Below, piece by piece: positions 11,306 through 28,020 of a stretch of 28,645 bases of DNA. Positions within the stretch are counted from its first letter, which is position 1; each line of letters begins with the position of its first letter. The DNA comes from Corallococcus exiguus (GTDB taxonomy: Bacteria; Myxococcota; Myxococcia; Myxococcales; Myxococcaceae), in the NCBI RefSeq assembly GCF_012985235.1, contig NZ_JABELB010000107.1; one strand, 5' to 3'. Under the pieces are notes generated by a model, which was given only the letters and a program-made list of their open reading frames with translations, was not told the origin of the DNA and made no database searches. Position numbers and translations under genes: made by a program.

Positions 11306-14300
11306 CTACCGGCGCGCCTTGCGAGCCGGCTTGCCCCGAGTGGTCTTCTTCGCCGCGGCCTTCTTCGCGGCGGTCTTCTTCCCCGCCGCCTTCTTCGCCG
11401 AAGCCTTCTTCGCAGGAGCCTTCTTCACCGCCGCCTTCTTCGCGGCCGTCTTCTTGCCCGCTGCCTTCTTCGCGGAAGCCTTCTTCGCAGGGGCCTTCTT
11501 CGCGGCGGACTTCTTGCTCGCCGCCTTCTTCGCGGAGGCCTTCTTCGCAGGGGCCTTCTTCACCGCCGCCTTCTTCGAGGAGGCCTTCTTCGCAGGGGCC
11601 TTCTTCACCGCCGCCTTCTTCGCAGGGGCCTTCTTCGTCGGAGCCTTCTTCACCGGCTTCGCCGAACCCTCCGGAGCCTCGCGGGCGTCGCCGCCCTCCT
11701 TGGCCCGGTCGAACTCGCGCATCGCGTCGTCCACGAGGCCCATGCTCATGTACGCGACGCCCAGGTCGTGGTGGTCCGCCGGGGACAGCCCTTCCTTGGT
11801 GCCCTCGCGCAGCTTGTTGAGGGCCTCCTCCACCACCGGATCCGCGGCCTGGGGCGCCTGCGAAGCCTCTTCGGCTTCAATCTCGCCCTTCAGCTCCTGG
11901 CCCAGGTTCACCGCATCGTCCTTCGGTGCCTGCGGCTCGGTGGCCACCTTCACATGGGCGCTCTCGGGCGCGGGGGACTCGGACGCTTCAGGGGCTTCGG
12001 ACTCGGTGCTGCCCGGCAACGGCGACGGCGTCTCGGACATGGGGGGCTCCGGGGCGATGCGCTGGAGGTGATCCTGCAGCTTGACCGTGCGCTCCTGGAG
12101 CTCCGCCACCCGGGCCTTGTCCTTCTCCACCACGTCCGGCGGAGCACGGGCCACGAAGTTCGGGTTGTCCAGCTTGCGCTGCAAACCGGTGAGTTCCTGC
12201 TCGGAGCGGACGATCTCCTTCTTCAGGCGGTCGCGCTCCGCGTCCAGGTCCACCAGGCCCGCCAGGGGCACGTAGATTTCCAGGTTGCCGCTCACGAACG
12301 CCGCTGCCTGCGGAGGCTTGGCGCCCGGGGGGCCCACCACCACCTCGGACAGGCCCGCGAGCGGCATCAGGTACGCGCGCCAACGCTCCAACAGCTCGCG
12401 CGTCGTCGCGTCCGGGCTCTGCACCACCGCCTTCACCTTGGCGGACGGCGGCAGGTTGCTCTCGCCGCGCAGCGTGCGCAGGCCCTCGATGGCCGCGATG
12501 ACCGGCGCCATCTCGCCTTCCGCGGCCGCGTCCACCCACGCCGTCTCCGGCGCAGGGTACGCCGCGATGCAGATGCTCTCCGTGGGCCGGGACATCGGCA
12601 GCTTCTGCCAGATCTCCTCGGTGATGAACGGCATGAACGGGTGCATCAGCCGCAGGATGCGGTCCAGGCACGTCACCAGCACCGCGCGCGTGGTGTCCTT
12701 GGCCTCCGCGTCGTCGCCGTACAACGAGCCCTTCGCCAGCTCGATGTACCAGTCGCAGAACTCCGCCCACAGGAACTGGTACAGCGTGGACGCGGCCTCC
12801 GCGAAGCCGAACGCCTCCAGCGACGCGCGCGTCTCCTCGGTGGCCTTCTGCAGGCGGGAGAGGATCCACCGGTCCGCCAGCGTCAGCTTGCGGCCCTCCA
12901 GCGGCGTCTTGTCCAGGCTGAAGTCGCCCATGTTCATCAGGGCGAAGCGGCTGGCGTTCCACAGCTTGTTGCAGAACGCCTTGTAGCCACCCAGGCGGTC
13001 CATCGACAGCTTGATGTCACGGCCCTGCTGCGTGAGCGACGCCAGCGTGAAGCGCAGCGCGTCCGCGCCGTGCGCGGGCATGCCCTGGGGGAAGCGGTTG
13101 CGCAGCGACGGCTGCAGCGACTCCGCCTTCGCGCCGAGGATGACGTCCAGGGGATCGATGACGTTCCCCTTCGTCTTGGACATCTTCTCGCCCTTCTCGT
13201 CGCGCACCATCGCGTGCAGGTACACGGTGCGGAAGGGCACGTCGTTCATGAAGTGCAGGCCCATCATCATCATCCGGGCGACCCAGAAGAAGATGATGTC
13301 GTGGCCCGTCTCCATCACTGACGTCGGGTAGAAGGTCTGCAGGTCCGCCGTCTGCTTCGGCCAGCCCAGCGTGGAGAACGGCCACAGCGCGGACGAGAAC
13401 CAGGTGTCCAGCACGTCCGGATCCTGCGTCAGCTCCTTGCCGCCGCACTTCGGGCAGGACTCCGGCGCCGTGCGCGACACGATGACGTCCGCCGTGTCCT
13501 TCGAGCGCTCCTCCGCCGGGGTGCACGCCGCGCAGTACCACGCGGGGATCTGGTGGCCCCACCACAGCTGGCGGCTCACGCACCAGTCGTGGATGTTGTT
13601 CATCCAGTGGAAGTACGTGTTCGTCCACGACTCGGGGACGAACTTCGTGCGGCCCTCCTCCACGGCCTGGATGGCCGGCTTCGCCAGCGGTTCGATCTTG
13701 ATGAACCACTGCGGCGACAGGCGCGGCTCCACCACCGTGGTGCAGCGCTGGCAGGTGCCCACGTTCAGCTTGTGCGGCTCCTCCTTCTCCAGCAGGCCCA
13801 GCTCCGTCAGGTCCGCCAGCACCTGCTTGCGCGCCTCCCGGCTCTCCAGGCCCGCGTACTTGCCGGTGTCCTTCGTCATCCGCGCCGCTTCGTCCAGGAT
13901 GGACAGCATCGGCAGCTTGTGGCGCAGGCCCGTCTGGTAGTCGTTGAAGTCGTGCGCGGGCGTGACCTTCACCACGCCGGTGCCGAACTCCATGTTCACC
14001 AGCTCGCCGTCCGCGATGACCGGAATCTCACGGTCGGTGAGCGGCAGCGCCACGCTCTTGCCGATGAGGTCCTGGTAGCGCGGATCCTCCGGGTGCACGG
14101 CGACGGCCGTGTCGCCCAGCAGCGTCTCCGGGCGCGTCGTCGCCACGGTGAGGAAGCGCTCCGTGCCCTTCACCGGGTAGCGGATGTGCCAGAGCGAGCC
14201 GTTCTTCTCCTCGTGCTCCACTTCCAGGTCGGAGAGGGCCGTGCGGCAGGACGGGCACCAGTTGATCAGCTTCTGGGCCCGGTACATCAGGCCCTCTTCG

Positions 14301-14800
14301 TACAGCCGGACGAACACCTCGCGCACCGCGGCCGAGGACTGCTCGTCCATGGTGAAGCGCTCGCGGCTCCAGTCCAGGGACGCGCCCAGGTAGCGGTGCT
14401 GCTCACCGATGCGCGCGCCGAACTTGCCCTTCCACGTCCAGACGCGCTCGAGGAACGCCTCGCGGCCCAGGTCGTGGCGGCTCTTGCCCTCCGTCTTCTT
14501 GAGCTCCTTCTCCACCACCATCTGCGTGGCGATGCCCGCGTGGTCCGTGCCCGGCAGCCAGAGCGCGTTGAAGCCGCTCATCCGCTTCCAGCGCGTGAGG
14601 ATGTCCTGGATGGTCGCGGTGAGCGCGTGGCCGATGTGCAGGCTGCCCGTCACGTTGGGCGGCGGCAGCACGATGCTGAACGGCGGCTTGGAGGAAGGGG
14701 CTTCGGCGCGGAAGTAGTCGCGCTCCAGCCAGTGGTTGTACCACCGCGCCTCCACTTCGGAGGGCTCGTAGGCCTTGGACAGTTCAGTCGTGTCAGTCAT
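11306..14800 (-). CDS. valS: Valine--tRNA ligase with a C-terminal extension of about 230 aa ending in a Lys/Ala/Pro-rich pentapeptide-repeat tail
   Basis: Class I signatures are present ([14 protein letters not shown] as [12 protein letters not shown] as KMSKS). The editing and anticodon-binding regions and the C-terminal coiled coil are typical of ValRS. An acidic or TPR-like segment and about 20 copies of KKAxA extend the protein to 1164 aa. Confidence 0.93.
11319..11650 (-). repeat. Coding tandem repeat (15-bp unit GCCTTCTTCGCNGNN on the + strand) encoding ([15 protein letters not shown])n at the C-terminus of ValRS
   Basis: Read directly from the sequence: there are about 20 units with a higher-order periodicity of about 75 bp. 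Confidence 0.85.
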
Positions 14801-14853: not shown

Positions 14854-16116
14854 TCAATGCTGGGTCTCGCGGTCCTTGATGAGCCGCTCCAGCTCTTCCC
14901 GGATGATGGTCTCCGCCAGCTGCGGAACGACCTCCCAGGCAATCTTCTCGATGACCTCGCGGGACGCCTTCGACAGCGCCTCGCGCAGCAGCGCCTCTCC
15001 GCCATCCGCGGCCGGACGGGCGCGCGCGGGCGGAGTCGCCGGCGAGGGACCGCCGATGTCCAGGGAGATCTCCTCCGCGCCGCTGGGCTCGGGCAGCGAG
15101 TCCTCGATGCGGATGCTCTCCGTGCGGGCCTGCGCGGCGGGAGGGGCGGCCGGAGCGCCCAGCCCGAACGGATCCCGGGCACGGGCGGCCGGAGGCACCG
15201 CGGCGGGCGGGGGCGCGGACGGCAGCGGCGCGGCGCCCGGAGGACGCGGGAAGCCGCCCGGGATGTTCGGGGCGCCAGGGCCCGGAGGACGCGCGGCCAT
15301 GCCCGGAGGCGGCGCACCCGGCGGACGCGCGCCCGGAGGCACGGCACCCGGAGGAGGACGCGCACCCGGCGGCATGGCGCCCGGAGGCGGCGCACCCGGA
15401 GGACGCGCGCCCATGCCCGGAGGCGGCGCACCCGGCGGAGGACGTGCACCCGGCGGCATGGCGCCCGGAGGCGGCGCACCCGGAGGACGCGCGCCCGGAG
15501 GAACAGCGCCCGGCAGCGGACGCGCCGCACCCGGAGGAGGAGGCACACCGGCGCCCGGAGGACGCGCGCCCGGAGGCGGCGCACCCGGCGGAGGACGCGC
15601 ACCCGGCGGCATGGCGCCCGGAGGCGGCGCACCCGTGGGACGCGCACCCGGCGGCACGGCGGCGGCGGGCGGCGCGCTGACCGGAGCGCTCGGGGCGGAG
15701 GTCTGGGGCAGAATGCGCGTCGCGGCGGACGCGGGCATCGTGTTGGACTTCTGGCCCACCAGCGCCTTCACCTTGTCGAGGAGGATCTGGCTCTCGAAGG
15801 GCTTGGTGATGTGGTCATCCGCCCGGGCGGCCTTCGCGCGGTTCTCGTCGAACGCCTCGAAGGTGCCGGCGAGCAGCAGCACCGGGATGGCCTGCGTGGA
15901 GGGGTCGCCCTTGAGCGCCTCGCAGACCTCGTAGCCGCTCTTGCCCGGCATCATCACGTCGGCGAGCACCACGTCCGGACGCAGCTCGCGCGTGCGGGAG
16001 ATGGCGTCCAGCCCGTTGTCCACCGCGGTCACCTGGAAGTCTTCCGTCGCGAAGATCATCCCGATCACCTTGCGGATGGTGAGCGAGTCGTCGGCGATCA
16101 GTAGATTCTTGGGCAT
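14854..16116 (-). CDS. romR: RomR-like response regulator: CheY-type receiver, long proline-rich repeat linker, conserved acidic C-terminal domain
   Basis: The receiver domain is LLIADDSLTIRKVIGMIF ... VVLADVMMPGKSGYEV ... DHITKPF. The linker holds about 8 copies of PPGARPPGAPPPGAM. The C-terminal block is EALLREALSKASREVIEKIAWEVVPQLAETIIREELERLIK. This architecture matches Myxococcus RomR. Upstream ATGs at 16140 and 16200 are alternative starts. Confidence 0.65.
   Translation of the reverse strand: MPKNLLIADDSLTIRKVIGMIFATEDFQVTAVDNGLDAISRTRELRPDVVLADVMMPGKSGYEVCEALKGDPSTQAIPVLLLAGTFEAFDENRAKAARADDHITKPFESQILLDKVKALVGQKSNTMPASAATRILPQTSAPSAPVSAPPAAAVPPGARPTGAPPPGAMPPGARPPPGAPPPGARPPGAGVPPPPGAARPLPGAVPPGARPPGAPPPGAMPPGARPPPGAPPPGMGARPPGAPPPGAMPPGARPPPGAVPPGARPPGAPPPGMAARPPGPGAPNIPGGFPRPPGAAPLPSAPPPAAVPPAARARDPFGLGAPAAPPAAQARTESIRIEDSLPEPSGAEEISLDIGGPSPATPPARARPAADGGEALLREALSKASREVIEKIAWEVVPQLAETIIREELERLIKDRETQH
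15200..15700 (-). repeat. Coding tandem repeat (about 45-bp unit) specifying the PPGARPPGAPPPGAM proline-rich linker
   Basis: Near-identical CCCGGAGGCGGCGCACCCGG(C/A)GGACGCGCGCC(C/A) units are visible on the + strand. Confidence 0.8.
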
Positions 16117-16233
16117 CGGCTCCGGCCTCGGGGGGCGCATACCCCCCTGAATTCGTTTGAGATTTCGGGCGAGCAAGCCTGCCTGCACGCCCTGTGTCAA
16201 TCGGAGAAGCTTAGGATTCGCGCGTTGGGCCGA

Positions 16234-18501: not shown

Positions 18502-18891
18502 CTACTTGCGCAGGCTGCCCACGGTGAGGTGCTTGGGCAGCTCCACTTCCGCGGGCACGCCGCCGCCGCCCTCGCCCACCGCCTCCACCTCTTCGTGAGA
18601 CGCGCCGGTGGTGATGAGGCGGTACTTCTGCGACGCCTCGCGGTCGTGCTGGGCCTGCTCCGGATCCAACCGCGCGATGAGCTGCCAGAAGAGGGCCGCG
18701 TGCTCGCGCTCCTCGTCCATGACGTGCCGCAGGATGGCCTTCGCCTCCTCATTGTCCGTCGCGTCCAGGTGCGCGGCGTAGAGGTTGATGGCGTCCAGCT
18801 CCGCCTCGATGTTGAGCCGGATGGAGCGGGCCAGTTCGGAGTCCGTCAGCTTCCGGGGCACCAGCGAGTGGAACGGGTTCGTCTGCGGCAT
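18502..18891 (-). CDS. Ferritin-like (EncFtn/Flp-type) encapsulin cargo protein with C-terminal cargo-loading peptide (EncC-like)
   Basis: The four-helix ferritin-like region has an E...EExxH di-iron motif (NIEAELDAINLYAAHL ... RHVMDEEREHAALFWQLIARL). The flexible tail ends in LTVGSLRK, matching the encapsulin targeting consensus (TVGSL/GSLxx). GAGGT lies 7 nt upstream of the ATG at 18891. The ORF-track extension to 19194 has no coding character. Confidence 0.8.
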   Translation of the reverse strand: MPQTNPFHSLVPRKLTDSELARSIRLNIEAELDAINLYAAHLDATDNEEAKAILRHVMDEEREHAALFWQLIARLDPEQAQHDREASQKYRLITTGASHEEVEAVGEGGGGVPAEVELPKHLTVGSLRK

Positions 18892-19047
18892 GAGGACCTC
18901 AGCGACAGGGAGAGTCCCCAACAGGCGAGCGGGCAACGACGTTCCGTCAGGCCGGGCTGGAGGACGTGCGCGAGCATCCGTTCGGTCGCGAGCGCGGTCA
19001 ACCGAATCCCGCTGGGGGTGCGTTGCGCGTGAACACCTGCCTCCGCC

Positions 19048-20577
19048 ATGCTCCCGCGCATGGAGACCCCCTCGCCGCTCGCGCAGCTGCTCCAGGCCCT
19101 GGACGCGGGGGACCTGGAGAAGGCACGGGTCGCGGCCGTGGCGCTGCAACGCGCCAACGCCCACACCCATCAGGTCGCCGCGGAGGTCCTCCATGAGCTG
19201 CGTCAGCCCCTCCTGGGCGCGAAGGCCTACGCCCAGCTGCTGGCCGAGGAAGGAGGCTCCAGCGGTCCGCTGAAGCTGCTGCTCGCGCAGGTGGAGCGGA
19301 TGGAGCAGATCGTCTCCGACTTCATCCGCCTGGCCAGCGAGCGGCCGGCCCCGCAGCAGCGGCTGTCCCTGGCCGCGCCCATCTGGGCGGCGGCGAAGGT
19401 GTTCAGCGTCAACCCGGACTCGGCGCGCATCTCACTGGAGGTGGAGGCCCCCGAGGACCTCACCATCCAGGGCAACGCGCGGCTGATTGAGCAGCTCACG
19501 CTCAACCTGCTCAACAACGCCCGCGACGCCATGTCCGGCCGGGGCCGCGTGAAGGTGACGCTCACGCGCGATGGCGCCTCCGCGGCCCTCTACGTTTCCG
19601 ACTGGGGACCGGGCATCCCGGACGAGCTGAAGACGCGTATCTTCGAGCCCTACGTCTCCGCCAGCAAACGCGGCACGGGCCTGGGGCTCGCCGTCTGTCG
19701 TCGCATCGCGCAGGAGCACCACGCGCAGATTGCCCTGGTGCCGCCCACGACGCTGCGCGAAGTGCCGCCCCCAGCCACCGTGTTCCGCGTGCTCTTCCCC
19801 CCCACGGACGCGCCGCGCCCGCCGCGCAAGCGCCTGCTGGTGGTGGACGACGAGGGCATCATCCGGATGGTCTTCAAGGACCTGATGGACAAGGAGTGCG
19901 AAGTCATTGAAGCGGCCACGGGCGAAGCCGCGCTCGAAATCCTCCGCTCGTCGCGCGTGGATCTCATCGTCACGGACAAGAACCTGCCCGGAATCTCCGG
20001 CCTGGAGCTGGCCCAGCACGCGAGGAAGCTGGACCCCGCGTCGCGCGTCATCCTGATGACGGGCTACCCCTCGCTGGTGACGACGCAGCAGGCGCTGCAG
20101 CTGGGCCTGGTGGACTACCTGCTCAAGCCCTTCGACGACATCCGCCAGGTGCGCGCGCTGTTGCGGCAGGCGCTGTACACACCGGCCGCGCCGCCTGTCC
20201 CCGCCCCCAGCGCTGGCGTGCGCCGGGTGGACGTGCTGGAGGACAACCCGGCCACCGCGCGGCTGATTTCAGAGGCGCTGACGCTGTTGGGCCTGGAGGC
20301 GCGCGTCGTCGCGGGCGCGGAGGTGGCCACCATGGAGCCGCCCATGGGCGTGGTGGTGTCTTGGGACTTCGCGCCGGCCTACGGCAAGAAGGCGCTGGAG
20401 CTGGCCCGGGCCCTGAGCCAGGGCGCGCCCTTCGTCGTCCTGGCCGAGCACCTCACCATGGACACGGCCCTGGCATCGCTGCGCGCCGGGGCCGCCGCGT
20501 GCCTGCCCAAGCTGCTCTCCGACACCACGGCGCTCAGCCGCGAGCTGGGCCTGGCCTTCAAGAAGACCGCTTCCTGA
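19048..20577 (+). CDS. Hybrid sensor histidine kinase (HisKA-HATPase_c followed by two receiver domains, the second degenerate)
   Basis: The H-box is VAAEVLHELRQPL, the N-box LLNNARDA, and G1/G2 are DWGPGIP and GTGLGLAV. The first receiver is LLVVDDEGIIR ... DLIVTDKNLPGISG ... KP. The C-terminal receiver-like domain runs from aa 390 to 509. Confidence 0.85.
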   Translation: MLPRMETPSPLAQLLQALDAGDLEKARVAAVALQRANAHTHQVAAEVLHELRQPLLGAKAYAQLLAEEGGSSGPLKLLLAQVERMEQIVSDFIRLASERPAPQQRLSLAAPIWAAAKVFSVNPDSARISLEVEAPEDLTIQGNARLIEQLTLNLLNNARDAMSGRGRVKVTLTRDGASAALYVSDWGPGIPDELKTRIFEPYVSASKRGTGLGLAVCRRIAQEHHAQIALVPPTTLREVPPPATVFRVLFPPTDAPRPPRKRLLVVDDEGIIRMVFKDLMDKECEVIEAATGEAALEILRSSRVDLIVTDKNLPGISGLELAQHARKLDPASRVILMTGYPSLVTTQQALQLGLVDYLLKPFDDIRQVRALLRQALYTPAAPPVPAPSAGVRRVDVLEDNPATARLISEALTLLGLEARVVAGAEVATMEPPMGVVVSWDFAPAYGKKALELARALSQGAPFVVLAEHLTMDTALASLRAGAAACLPKLLSDTTALSRELGLAFKKTAS

Positions 20578-27921: not shown

Positions 27922-28020
27922 GGTAGGGCCTCCGGACCTGGTGGCCGGCCCGGTCTTCAAAACCGGTGAGGGGCTGCGAGAGCAGTCCCTGGCGAGTTCG
28001 ATTCCCGTGCCCTACCGCCA
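27922..28020 (+). tRNA. selC: tRNA-Sec (selenocysteine, anticodon UCA), 99 nt including the encoded CCA
   Basis: The 8-bp acceptor stem is GGTAGGGC/GCCCTACC, with discriminator G and CCA. The anticodon stem-loop is CCGGT-CTTCAAA-ACCGG, giving U33 and anticodon TCA. A long variable arm (GGGGCTGC-GAGA-GCAGTCCC) is present. The T-arm is GCGAG-TTCGATT-CCCGT, which has one A·C mismatch but otherwise parallels the E. coli selC T-arm. The 8/5 geometry and extra arm are tRNA-Sec hallmarks. Confidence 0.75.

Follow-up and report, generated by a model that had tools for sequence, protein, structure and literature searches.

The Corallococcus exiguus DNA analyzed in this study, referred to as the window, is 28.6 kb long and includes, in order, genes for a TPR/zincin protein, a response regulator, GroEL, a hybrid histidine kinase, EncC, a GGDEF regulator, a CheW-like protein, a hypothetical protein, and valyl-tRNA synthetase (ValRS). 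The encC gene lies on the minus strand at 18502-18891 and translates into 129 amino acids plus a stop codon, the product starting with MPQTNPFH and ending in ...ELPKHLTVGSLRK. The features assigned to the gene and its immediate surroundings are as follows.

18502..18891, minus strand: encC coding sequence, by sequence and position the ortholog of Myxococcus xanthus EncC/MXAN_4464 (translation; match to PDB entry 7S8T, 106/130 residues identical; NCBIfam score above cutoff)
18505..18528, minus strand: targeting peptide LTVGSLRK (motif scan, family tails, published peptide)
18529..18579, minus strand: Gly/Glu/Pro-rich flexible linker, approximately residues 105-121 (variable in the alignment, low pLDDT)
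18580..18843, minus strand: EncFtn-like helical core, residues 17-104 (PF22277, AlphaFold2 helices)
18799-18801, 18778-18780, 18709-18711, and 18700-18702, minus strand: ferroxidase residues E31, Y38, E61, and H64, respectively (alignments)
18897..18900, minus strand: Shine-Dalgarno-like GAGG, read from the sequence, 5 nt from the encC ATG
18973..19001, minus strand: promoter-like block TTGACC-N17-GATGCT (conservation upstream of encC)

The open reading frame can be extended upstream to position 19194, an extension that the preliminary description had dismissed as non-coding. Third-position GC content (GC3) is 0.95 in the coding sequence (18505-18891) but only 0.73 in the extension and 0.62 in the intergenic portion, and the extension overlaps the divergent hybrid histidine kinase gene, which starts at 19048. 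The start codon assigned here (ATG, 18889-18891) is preceded, across a 5-nt spacer, by GAGG; Met1 of M. xanthus EncC, the closest solved homolog, falls at this ATG in the alignment, and the same 129-residue start was chosen by the gene callers in six independent assemblies. The longer ORF is thus an artifact of stop-to-stop reading, and on this point the earlier assessment agrees with all lines of evidence.

The 129-residue protein matches the Pfam EncFtn-like family PF22277 over residues 21-82 (36.6 bits, cutoff 27) and, over the full profile (positions 1-117 of 117), the NCBIfam model NF058679, [quoted passage not shown] (EncB_fam; 111.9 bits, cutoff 90). A search of the PDB returned M. xanthus EncC (7S8T) as the top match, full length and with an E value of 1.8e-64, the two proteins sharing 106 of 130 residues (82%); the matches that followed were other encapsulated ferritins, with E values of 1e-9 to 1e-6. 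An ExxH signature is included in the di-iron motif D59-E60-E61-R62-E63-H64, in agreement with the ferritin-like assignment made previously. In an ungapped alignment, residues E31, Y38, E61, and H64 correspond to Glu32, Tyr39, Glu62, and His65 of R. rubrum EncFtn, the iron ligands of the ferroxidase center at the dimer interface (PMC5012862), and all four are invariant among 32 aligned sequences from Corallococcus, Myxococcus, Pyxidicoccus, Stigmatella, Hyalangium, Archangium, Vitiosangium, and Aggregicoccus. An AlphaFold2 model built from the same 32-sequence alignment has two long helices forming a helical hairpin (residues 17-44 and 48-75, pLDDT 88 to 97). Judged by these profile matches and alignments, the protein is a two-helix "half-ferritin" domain bearing the Glu, Tyr, and Glu-x-x-His ferroxidase ligands.

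This assignment conflicts with the public annotations. Identical EncC proteins appear in NCBI records as "ferritin [Corallococcus sp. AB004]" and [quoted passage not shown] and the JGI name is "rubrerythrin," names that would make the protein a COQ7-type demethoxyubiquinone hydroxylase or a rubrerythrin. Weak Pfam matches to COQ7 (25.5 bits) and Rubrerythrin (26.0 bits) point the same way, but the COQ7 match spans profile positions 2-59 of 169, i.e., a single helix pair, and a protein of 129 residues, about 90 of them folded, is too short for a monomeric four-helix di-iron domain. The EncFtn-like and EncB_fam models score higher, with a full-length match, and the protein is 82% identical to a crystallized EncFtn decamer, all of which makes a COQ7 or rubrerythrin identity very improbable. 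By the same comparisons, "demethoxyubiquinone hydroxylase family protein," "rubrerythrin," and "ferritin" are misleading names for EncC. They persist although the NCBIfam EncB-family cargo model passes its cutoff.

C-terminal to the half-ferritin domain, the linker varies in both length and sequence among the 32 aligned homologs, and in the AlphaFold2 model residues 108-129, linker and peptide, have pLDDT values below 50; the linker is accordingly predicted by the model to be disordered. The tail that follows shows a different pattern. The motif [LMF][TS][VIL]Gx[LFM][RK] was found once in a six-frame translation of the whole window, at the C terminus of EncC, and inspection of the printed tails of 121 family hits identified an L-T-V-G-x-L-R-R-like ending in all but two, which were truncated. 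[quoted passage not shown] The consensus reported for the targeting peptide of EncC homologs is RLTVGS(N)L(M) (PMC11202242). The view that a flexible tail ending in LTVGSLRK is a cargo-targeting peptide, already put forward in the preliminary description, is therefore upheld by the low pLDDT, the match to the published peptide, and the family-wide conservation.

The Corallococcus and M. xanthus tails differ in the last residue, which is Lys in the former and Arg in the latter, a conservative change. According to the published structural data, salt bridges link the Arg of the targeting peptide to EncA Asp39 and Asp214; EncB and EncC carry an additional, terminal Arg that contacts EncA Asp214 and Tyr217, and EncD, which has a Gly in place of this terminal Arg, is still loaded (PMC11126975).

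No substantial ORF in the 28.6-kb window matched the Linocin_M18/encapsulin Pfam families, and a tblastn search of the window with M. xanthus EncA as the query (verified as identical to PDB 4PT2) gave nothing below an E value of 5, in accordance with the earlier observation that the window lacks an encapsulin shell ORF. The shell gene was found elsewhere in assemblies that encode the same EncC. The identical 129-residue protein is on record in at least 10 NCBI Corallococcus assemblies. The closest assembly match to the window is GCA_003986945.1 (contig RAWR01000021.1, 99.2% DNA identity over 20 kb), whose vault protein is also identical to that of the window. In this assembly and in GCA_006376655.1, both encoding an identical EncC, encB-encA lies on another contig (RAWR01000008.1 and VEWR01000267.1, respectively). 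In GCA_009909105.1, both loci are on a single 1.23-Mb contig (JAAAPK010000002.1), with encC at about 370.8 kb and encA at about 915 kb, i.e., approximately 0.54 Mb apart. The presence of encA is thus established in conspecific assemblies with an identical EncC, the closest being 99.2% identical to the window. This outcome of the shell gene search, which had been proposed as a check, supports the earlier suggestion that the cargo is loaded in trans into a distantly encoded shell. A genome devoid of any shell gene had been named there as the refuting outcome, and the conspecific assemblies do carry one. Because the window contains no shell gene and encA is some 0.54 Mb away on a conspecific contig, encC is a secondary cargo gene rather than a core (operon-encoded) one.

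The Corallococcus shell protein has 290 residues, is annotated as [quoted passage not shown] matches the NCBIfam model encap_f1 (288 bits), and is 96% identical to M. xanthus EncA, with the peptide-contacting residues D39, D214, and Y217 unchanged. A species-level scan covering many Corallococcus species, in which no entry was named C. exiguus (the conspecific assemblies were reached through exact-protein look-ups), recovered EncA proteins 98.6 to 100% identical to the 290-residue protein in every Corallococcus locus retrieved. In the assemblies with an identical EncC, encA is in every case preceded by the gene for a 162-residue EncB with the tail ...PLTIGSLRRGGG... (also given as ...PLTIGSLRRGGGSGG...). 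Directly downstream of encA, all Corallococcus encBA loci that were read (from conspecific assemblies) carry a gene for an NtrC-type sigma-54 activator with receiver, Sigma54_activat, and HTH_8 domains (for example, positions 3131-4555 of locus L088); this activator is a candidate for controlling the shell operon.

The lack of linkage between encC and a shell gene raises the question of whether the protein might be an EncFtn-like ferroxidase now free in the cytosol and no longer loaded into a shell, its C-terminal peptide being a relic. Besides the lack of a linked shell gene in the window, the terminal Lys, instead of the Arg of M. xanthus EncC, could be taken as a sign of such a loss. However, the tail motif is constrained while the adjoining linker varies freely, the only exceptions among the 121 family hits being the two truncated sequences; the genomes concerned also keep the shell and the residues that contact the peptide; and in M. 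xanthus the unlinked EncC is demonstrably packaged (PMC11126975). A relic peptide on a free ferroxidase is hence improbable, and a targeted cargo protein remains the preferred reading.

M. xanthus EncC is MXAN_4464 (PMC11202242), and we traced positional orthology with this gene through the M. hansupus locus, whose EncC is 96% identical to that of M. xanthus. The gene order around encC is the same in M. hansupus, M. stipitatus, Stigmatella aurantiaca DW4/3-1, and Archangium violaceum. Sequence and position together identify the 129-residue protein as the ortholog of M. xanthus EncC. Since the gene order is kept across several genera, the unlinked position of encC is, by these comparisons, ancient and stable in this group of bacteria and no peculiarity of the window. 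The preliminary description had stated that the protein mirrors EncC, which captured the likeness but understated it, the protein being EncC itself (82% identical and syntenic); the label "orphan," for its part, was right as to the lack of a nearby shell gene but overstated what is the usual, conserved arrangement for the family.

The correspondence with M. xanthus EncC (MXAN_4464, UniProt Q1D3Y8, PDB 7S8T) extends to length (129 versus 130 residues), the ferroxidase residues, the linker and LTVGSLR peptide common to both, the chromosomal neighborhood (via M. hansupus), and the location of the gene away from encBA. The two proteins differ in the terminal Lys versus Arg and in the linker (EGGGGVPAEVELPKH in Corallococcus versus KEGAAPSPADVTPEKR in M. 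xanthus). EncB (MXAN_3557; NF058678) resembles EncC in being a half-ferritin of the EncFtn-like type, with an ExxH motif and, for the same EncA shell, an L-T-[VI]-G-S-L-R-R peptide. Unlike EncC, however, it is encoded directly upstream of encA, is longer (158 to 162 residues), has a linker rich in Pro and Ala, and continues past the targeting peptide in a Gly/Ser extension; against the EncB-specific model NF058678, EncC scored 28 bits, compared to a cutoff of 210. The resemblance to R. rubrum EncFtn (Rru_A0973, PDB 5DA5) lies in the two-helix fold, the ferroxidase center at the dimer interface, and a C-terminal peptide containing GSL, but the sequence similarity to EncC is only distant (E value about 1e-7). 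Classical EncFtn cargos differ from EncC in sharing an operon with the gene for a T=1 shell and in having a peptide of the SLGIGSLK type rather than the LTVGSLR type (PMC11202242).

The ortholog has been characterized structurally and biochemically, and the family is covered by NCBIfam and by reviews. What the locus documents is that Corallococcus and related genera have kept the multi-cargo encapsulin iron store of M. xanthus, the unlinked EncC included, with both the gene order and the targeting peptide preserved, which is of little import beyond annotation.

The window also contains a gene for a vault protein homolog, to whose proximity the preliminary description had drawn attention.

7435-9714, minus strand: homolog of the eukaryotic major vault protein (MVP), 759 amino acids, with Vault repeat and MVP shoulder domains

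A Corallococcus MVP homolog has been reported before (PMC3762200). The distance given earlier, 9 kb, is essentially correct (8.8 kb). If EncC were functionally tied to the vault homolog, for instance as the cargo of a bacterial vault-like particle, the location of both genes on one stretch of chromosome 8.8 kb apart would be in keeping with it. Between them, however, lie at least six unrelated genes on both strands, and the EncC tail matches the EncA-binding peptide. The vault gene is, moreover, missing at this site in a conspecific strain (locus L005) and from the syntenic encC loci of M. hansupus, M. stipitatus, Stigmatella, and Archangium, with encC kept in all of them. As encC and the vault gene do not stay together in other genomes, a functional link between them is rejected; a role for EncC as vault cargo is extremely improbable, and by these genome comparisons the closeness of the two genes is a strain-variable coincidence with no functional meaning. 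The vault gene is followed by three ORFs, namely, on its own strand, an HmuY-like ORF (6360-7349) and an ORF of 551 amino acids without a Pfam match (4780-6435), and an ORF of 344 amino acids on the opposite strand.

Upstream of encC, an alignment of sequences from Corallococcus, two Myxococcus species, Stigmatella, and Archangium contained a sole strongly conserved block, GGATTC(C/G)G-TTGACC-N17-GATGCT. The TTGACC-N17-GATGCT portion is preceded by GGATTCGG in the window and by GGATTCCG in other genera. Its conservation suggests a promoter of the sigma-70 type, possibly with an operator immediately before it. A scan for consensus promoters and terminators around encC found none, TTGACC-N17-GATGCT falling below the threshold, and an Rfam scan found no RNA element near the gene. 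A sigma-54-like GG-N-GC candidate at 18925-18937 was rejected since its spacing is wrong.

Overall, the data make it highly probable that the gene is the encC of a C. exiguus-group Corallococcus and that its product is a secondary cargo of a family 1 (HK97-fold) EncA iron store. In the mechanism we propose, encC would be transcribed separately, at a locus about 0.5 Mb away from encBA, probably via the conserved TTGACC-N17-GATGCT promoter. By orthology with M. xanthus, the N-terminal two-helix half-ferritin domain would dimerize, two chains contributing their E31, Y38, E61, and H64 to a di-iron ferroxidase center, and the EncC dimers would assemble into decamers. The disordered Gly/Glu-rich linker would present the C-terminal LTVGSLRK, which would dock during shell assembly into the pocket that lies between N-helix and E-loop on the interior side of EncA, and EncC would be co-packaged with EncB, whose gene is beside encA, and presumably with EncD. 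Once inside, EncC would oxidize the Fe2+ entering the shell, and the iron would be stored as a mineral in its interior. For Corallococcus, we infer packaging into the shell, assembly of decamers, and ferroxidase activity by orthology with the M. xanthus system, the native particles of which contain about 92 EncC, 36 EncB, and 47 EncD (PMC11126975), and the function of the promoter from its conservation.

A further, speculative idea concerns control of the cargo. The location of encC between a hybrid histidine kinase gene and a GGDEF response regulator gene, beside groEL, is kept across Myxococcaceae and Archangiaceae. Because of this conserved kinase/GGDEF/groEL placement and of the upstream block GGATTCCG-TTGACC-N17-GATGCT, a stress circuit of the two-component or c-di-GMP kind might perhaps control the supply of EncC independently of the shell operon, a scenario that we regard as unlikely. 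If true, the cargo composition and iron-oxidizing capacity of the encapsulin would be set independently. The conserved upstream block offers a handle on the co-regulation of unlinked cargo genes with the shell.

Several other features of the window were recorded in the course of the analysis. The ValRS gene (11306-14800, minus strand) encodes a Lys/Ala/Pro-rich C-terminal extension of about 110 residues resembling histone H1 or HC2 (the Pfam HC2 family matches residues 1048-1160); the corresponding DNA is internally repetitive, especially at 11345-11610, and the length of the synthetase differs between strains (1159 to 1165 residues). Internal repetition is also found in the gene at 14854-16200 (minus strand), encoding a response-regulator-domain protein with a long low-complexity stretch, the repeats of which (15281-15675) show up as multiple offset self-matches in BLASTN comparisons with related loci. 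Toward the start of the window, a homolog of biopterin-dependent aromatic amino acid hydroxylases (182-1834, plus strand) adjoins a gene (1942-3660, minus strand) for a protein with a LysM domain and a C-terminal, peptidoglycan-degrading domain similar to that of the type VI secretion system (T6SS) protein VgrG3. Finally, a selenocysteine tRNA (27922-28016, plus strand; Rfam RF01852, 70.5 bits, full-length match) is located just downstream of a methyltransferase gene.
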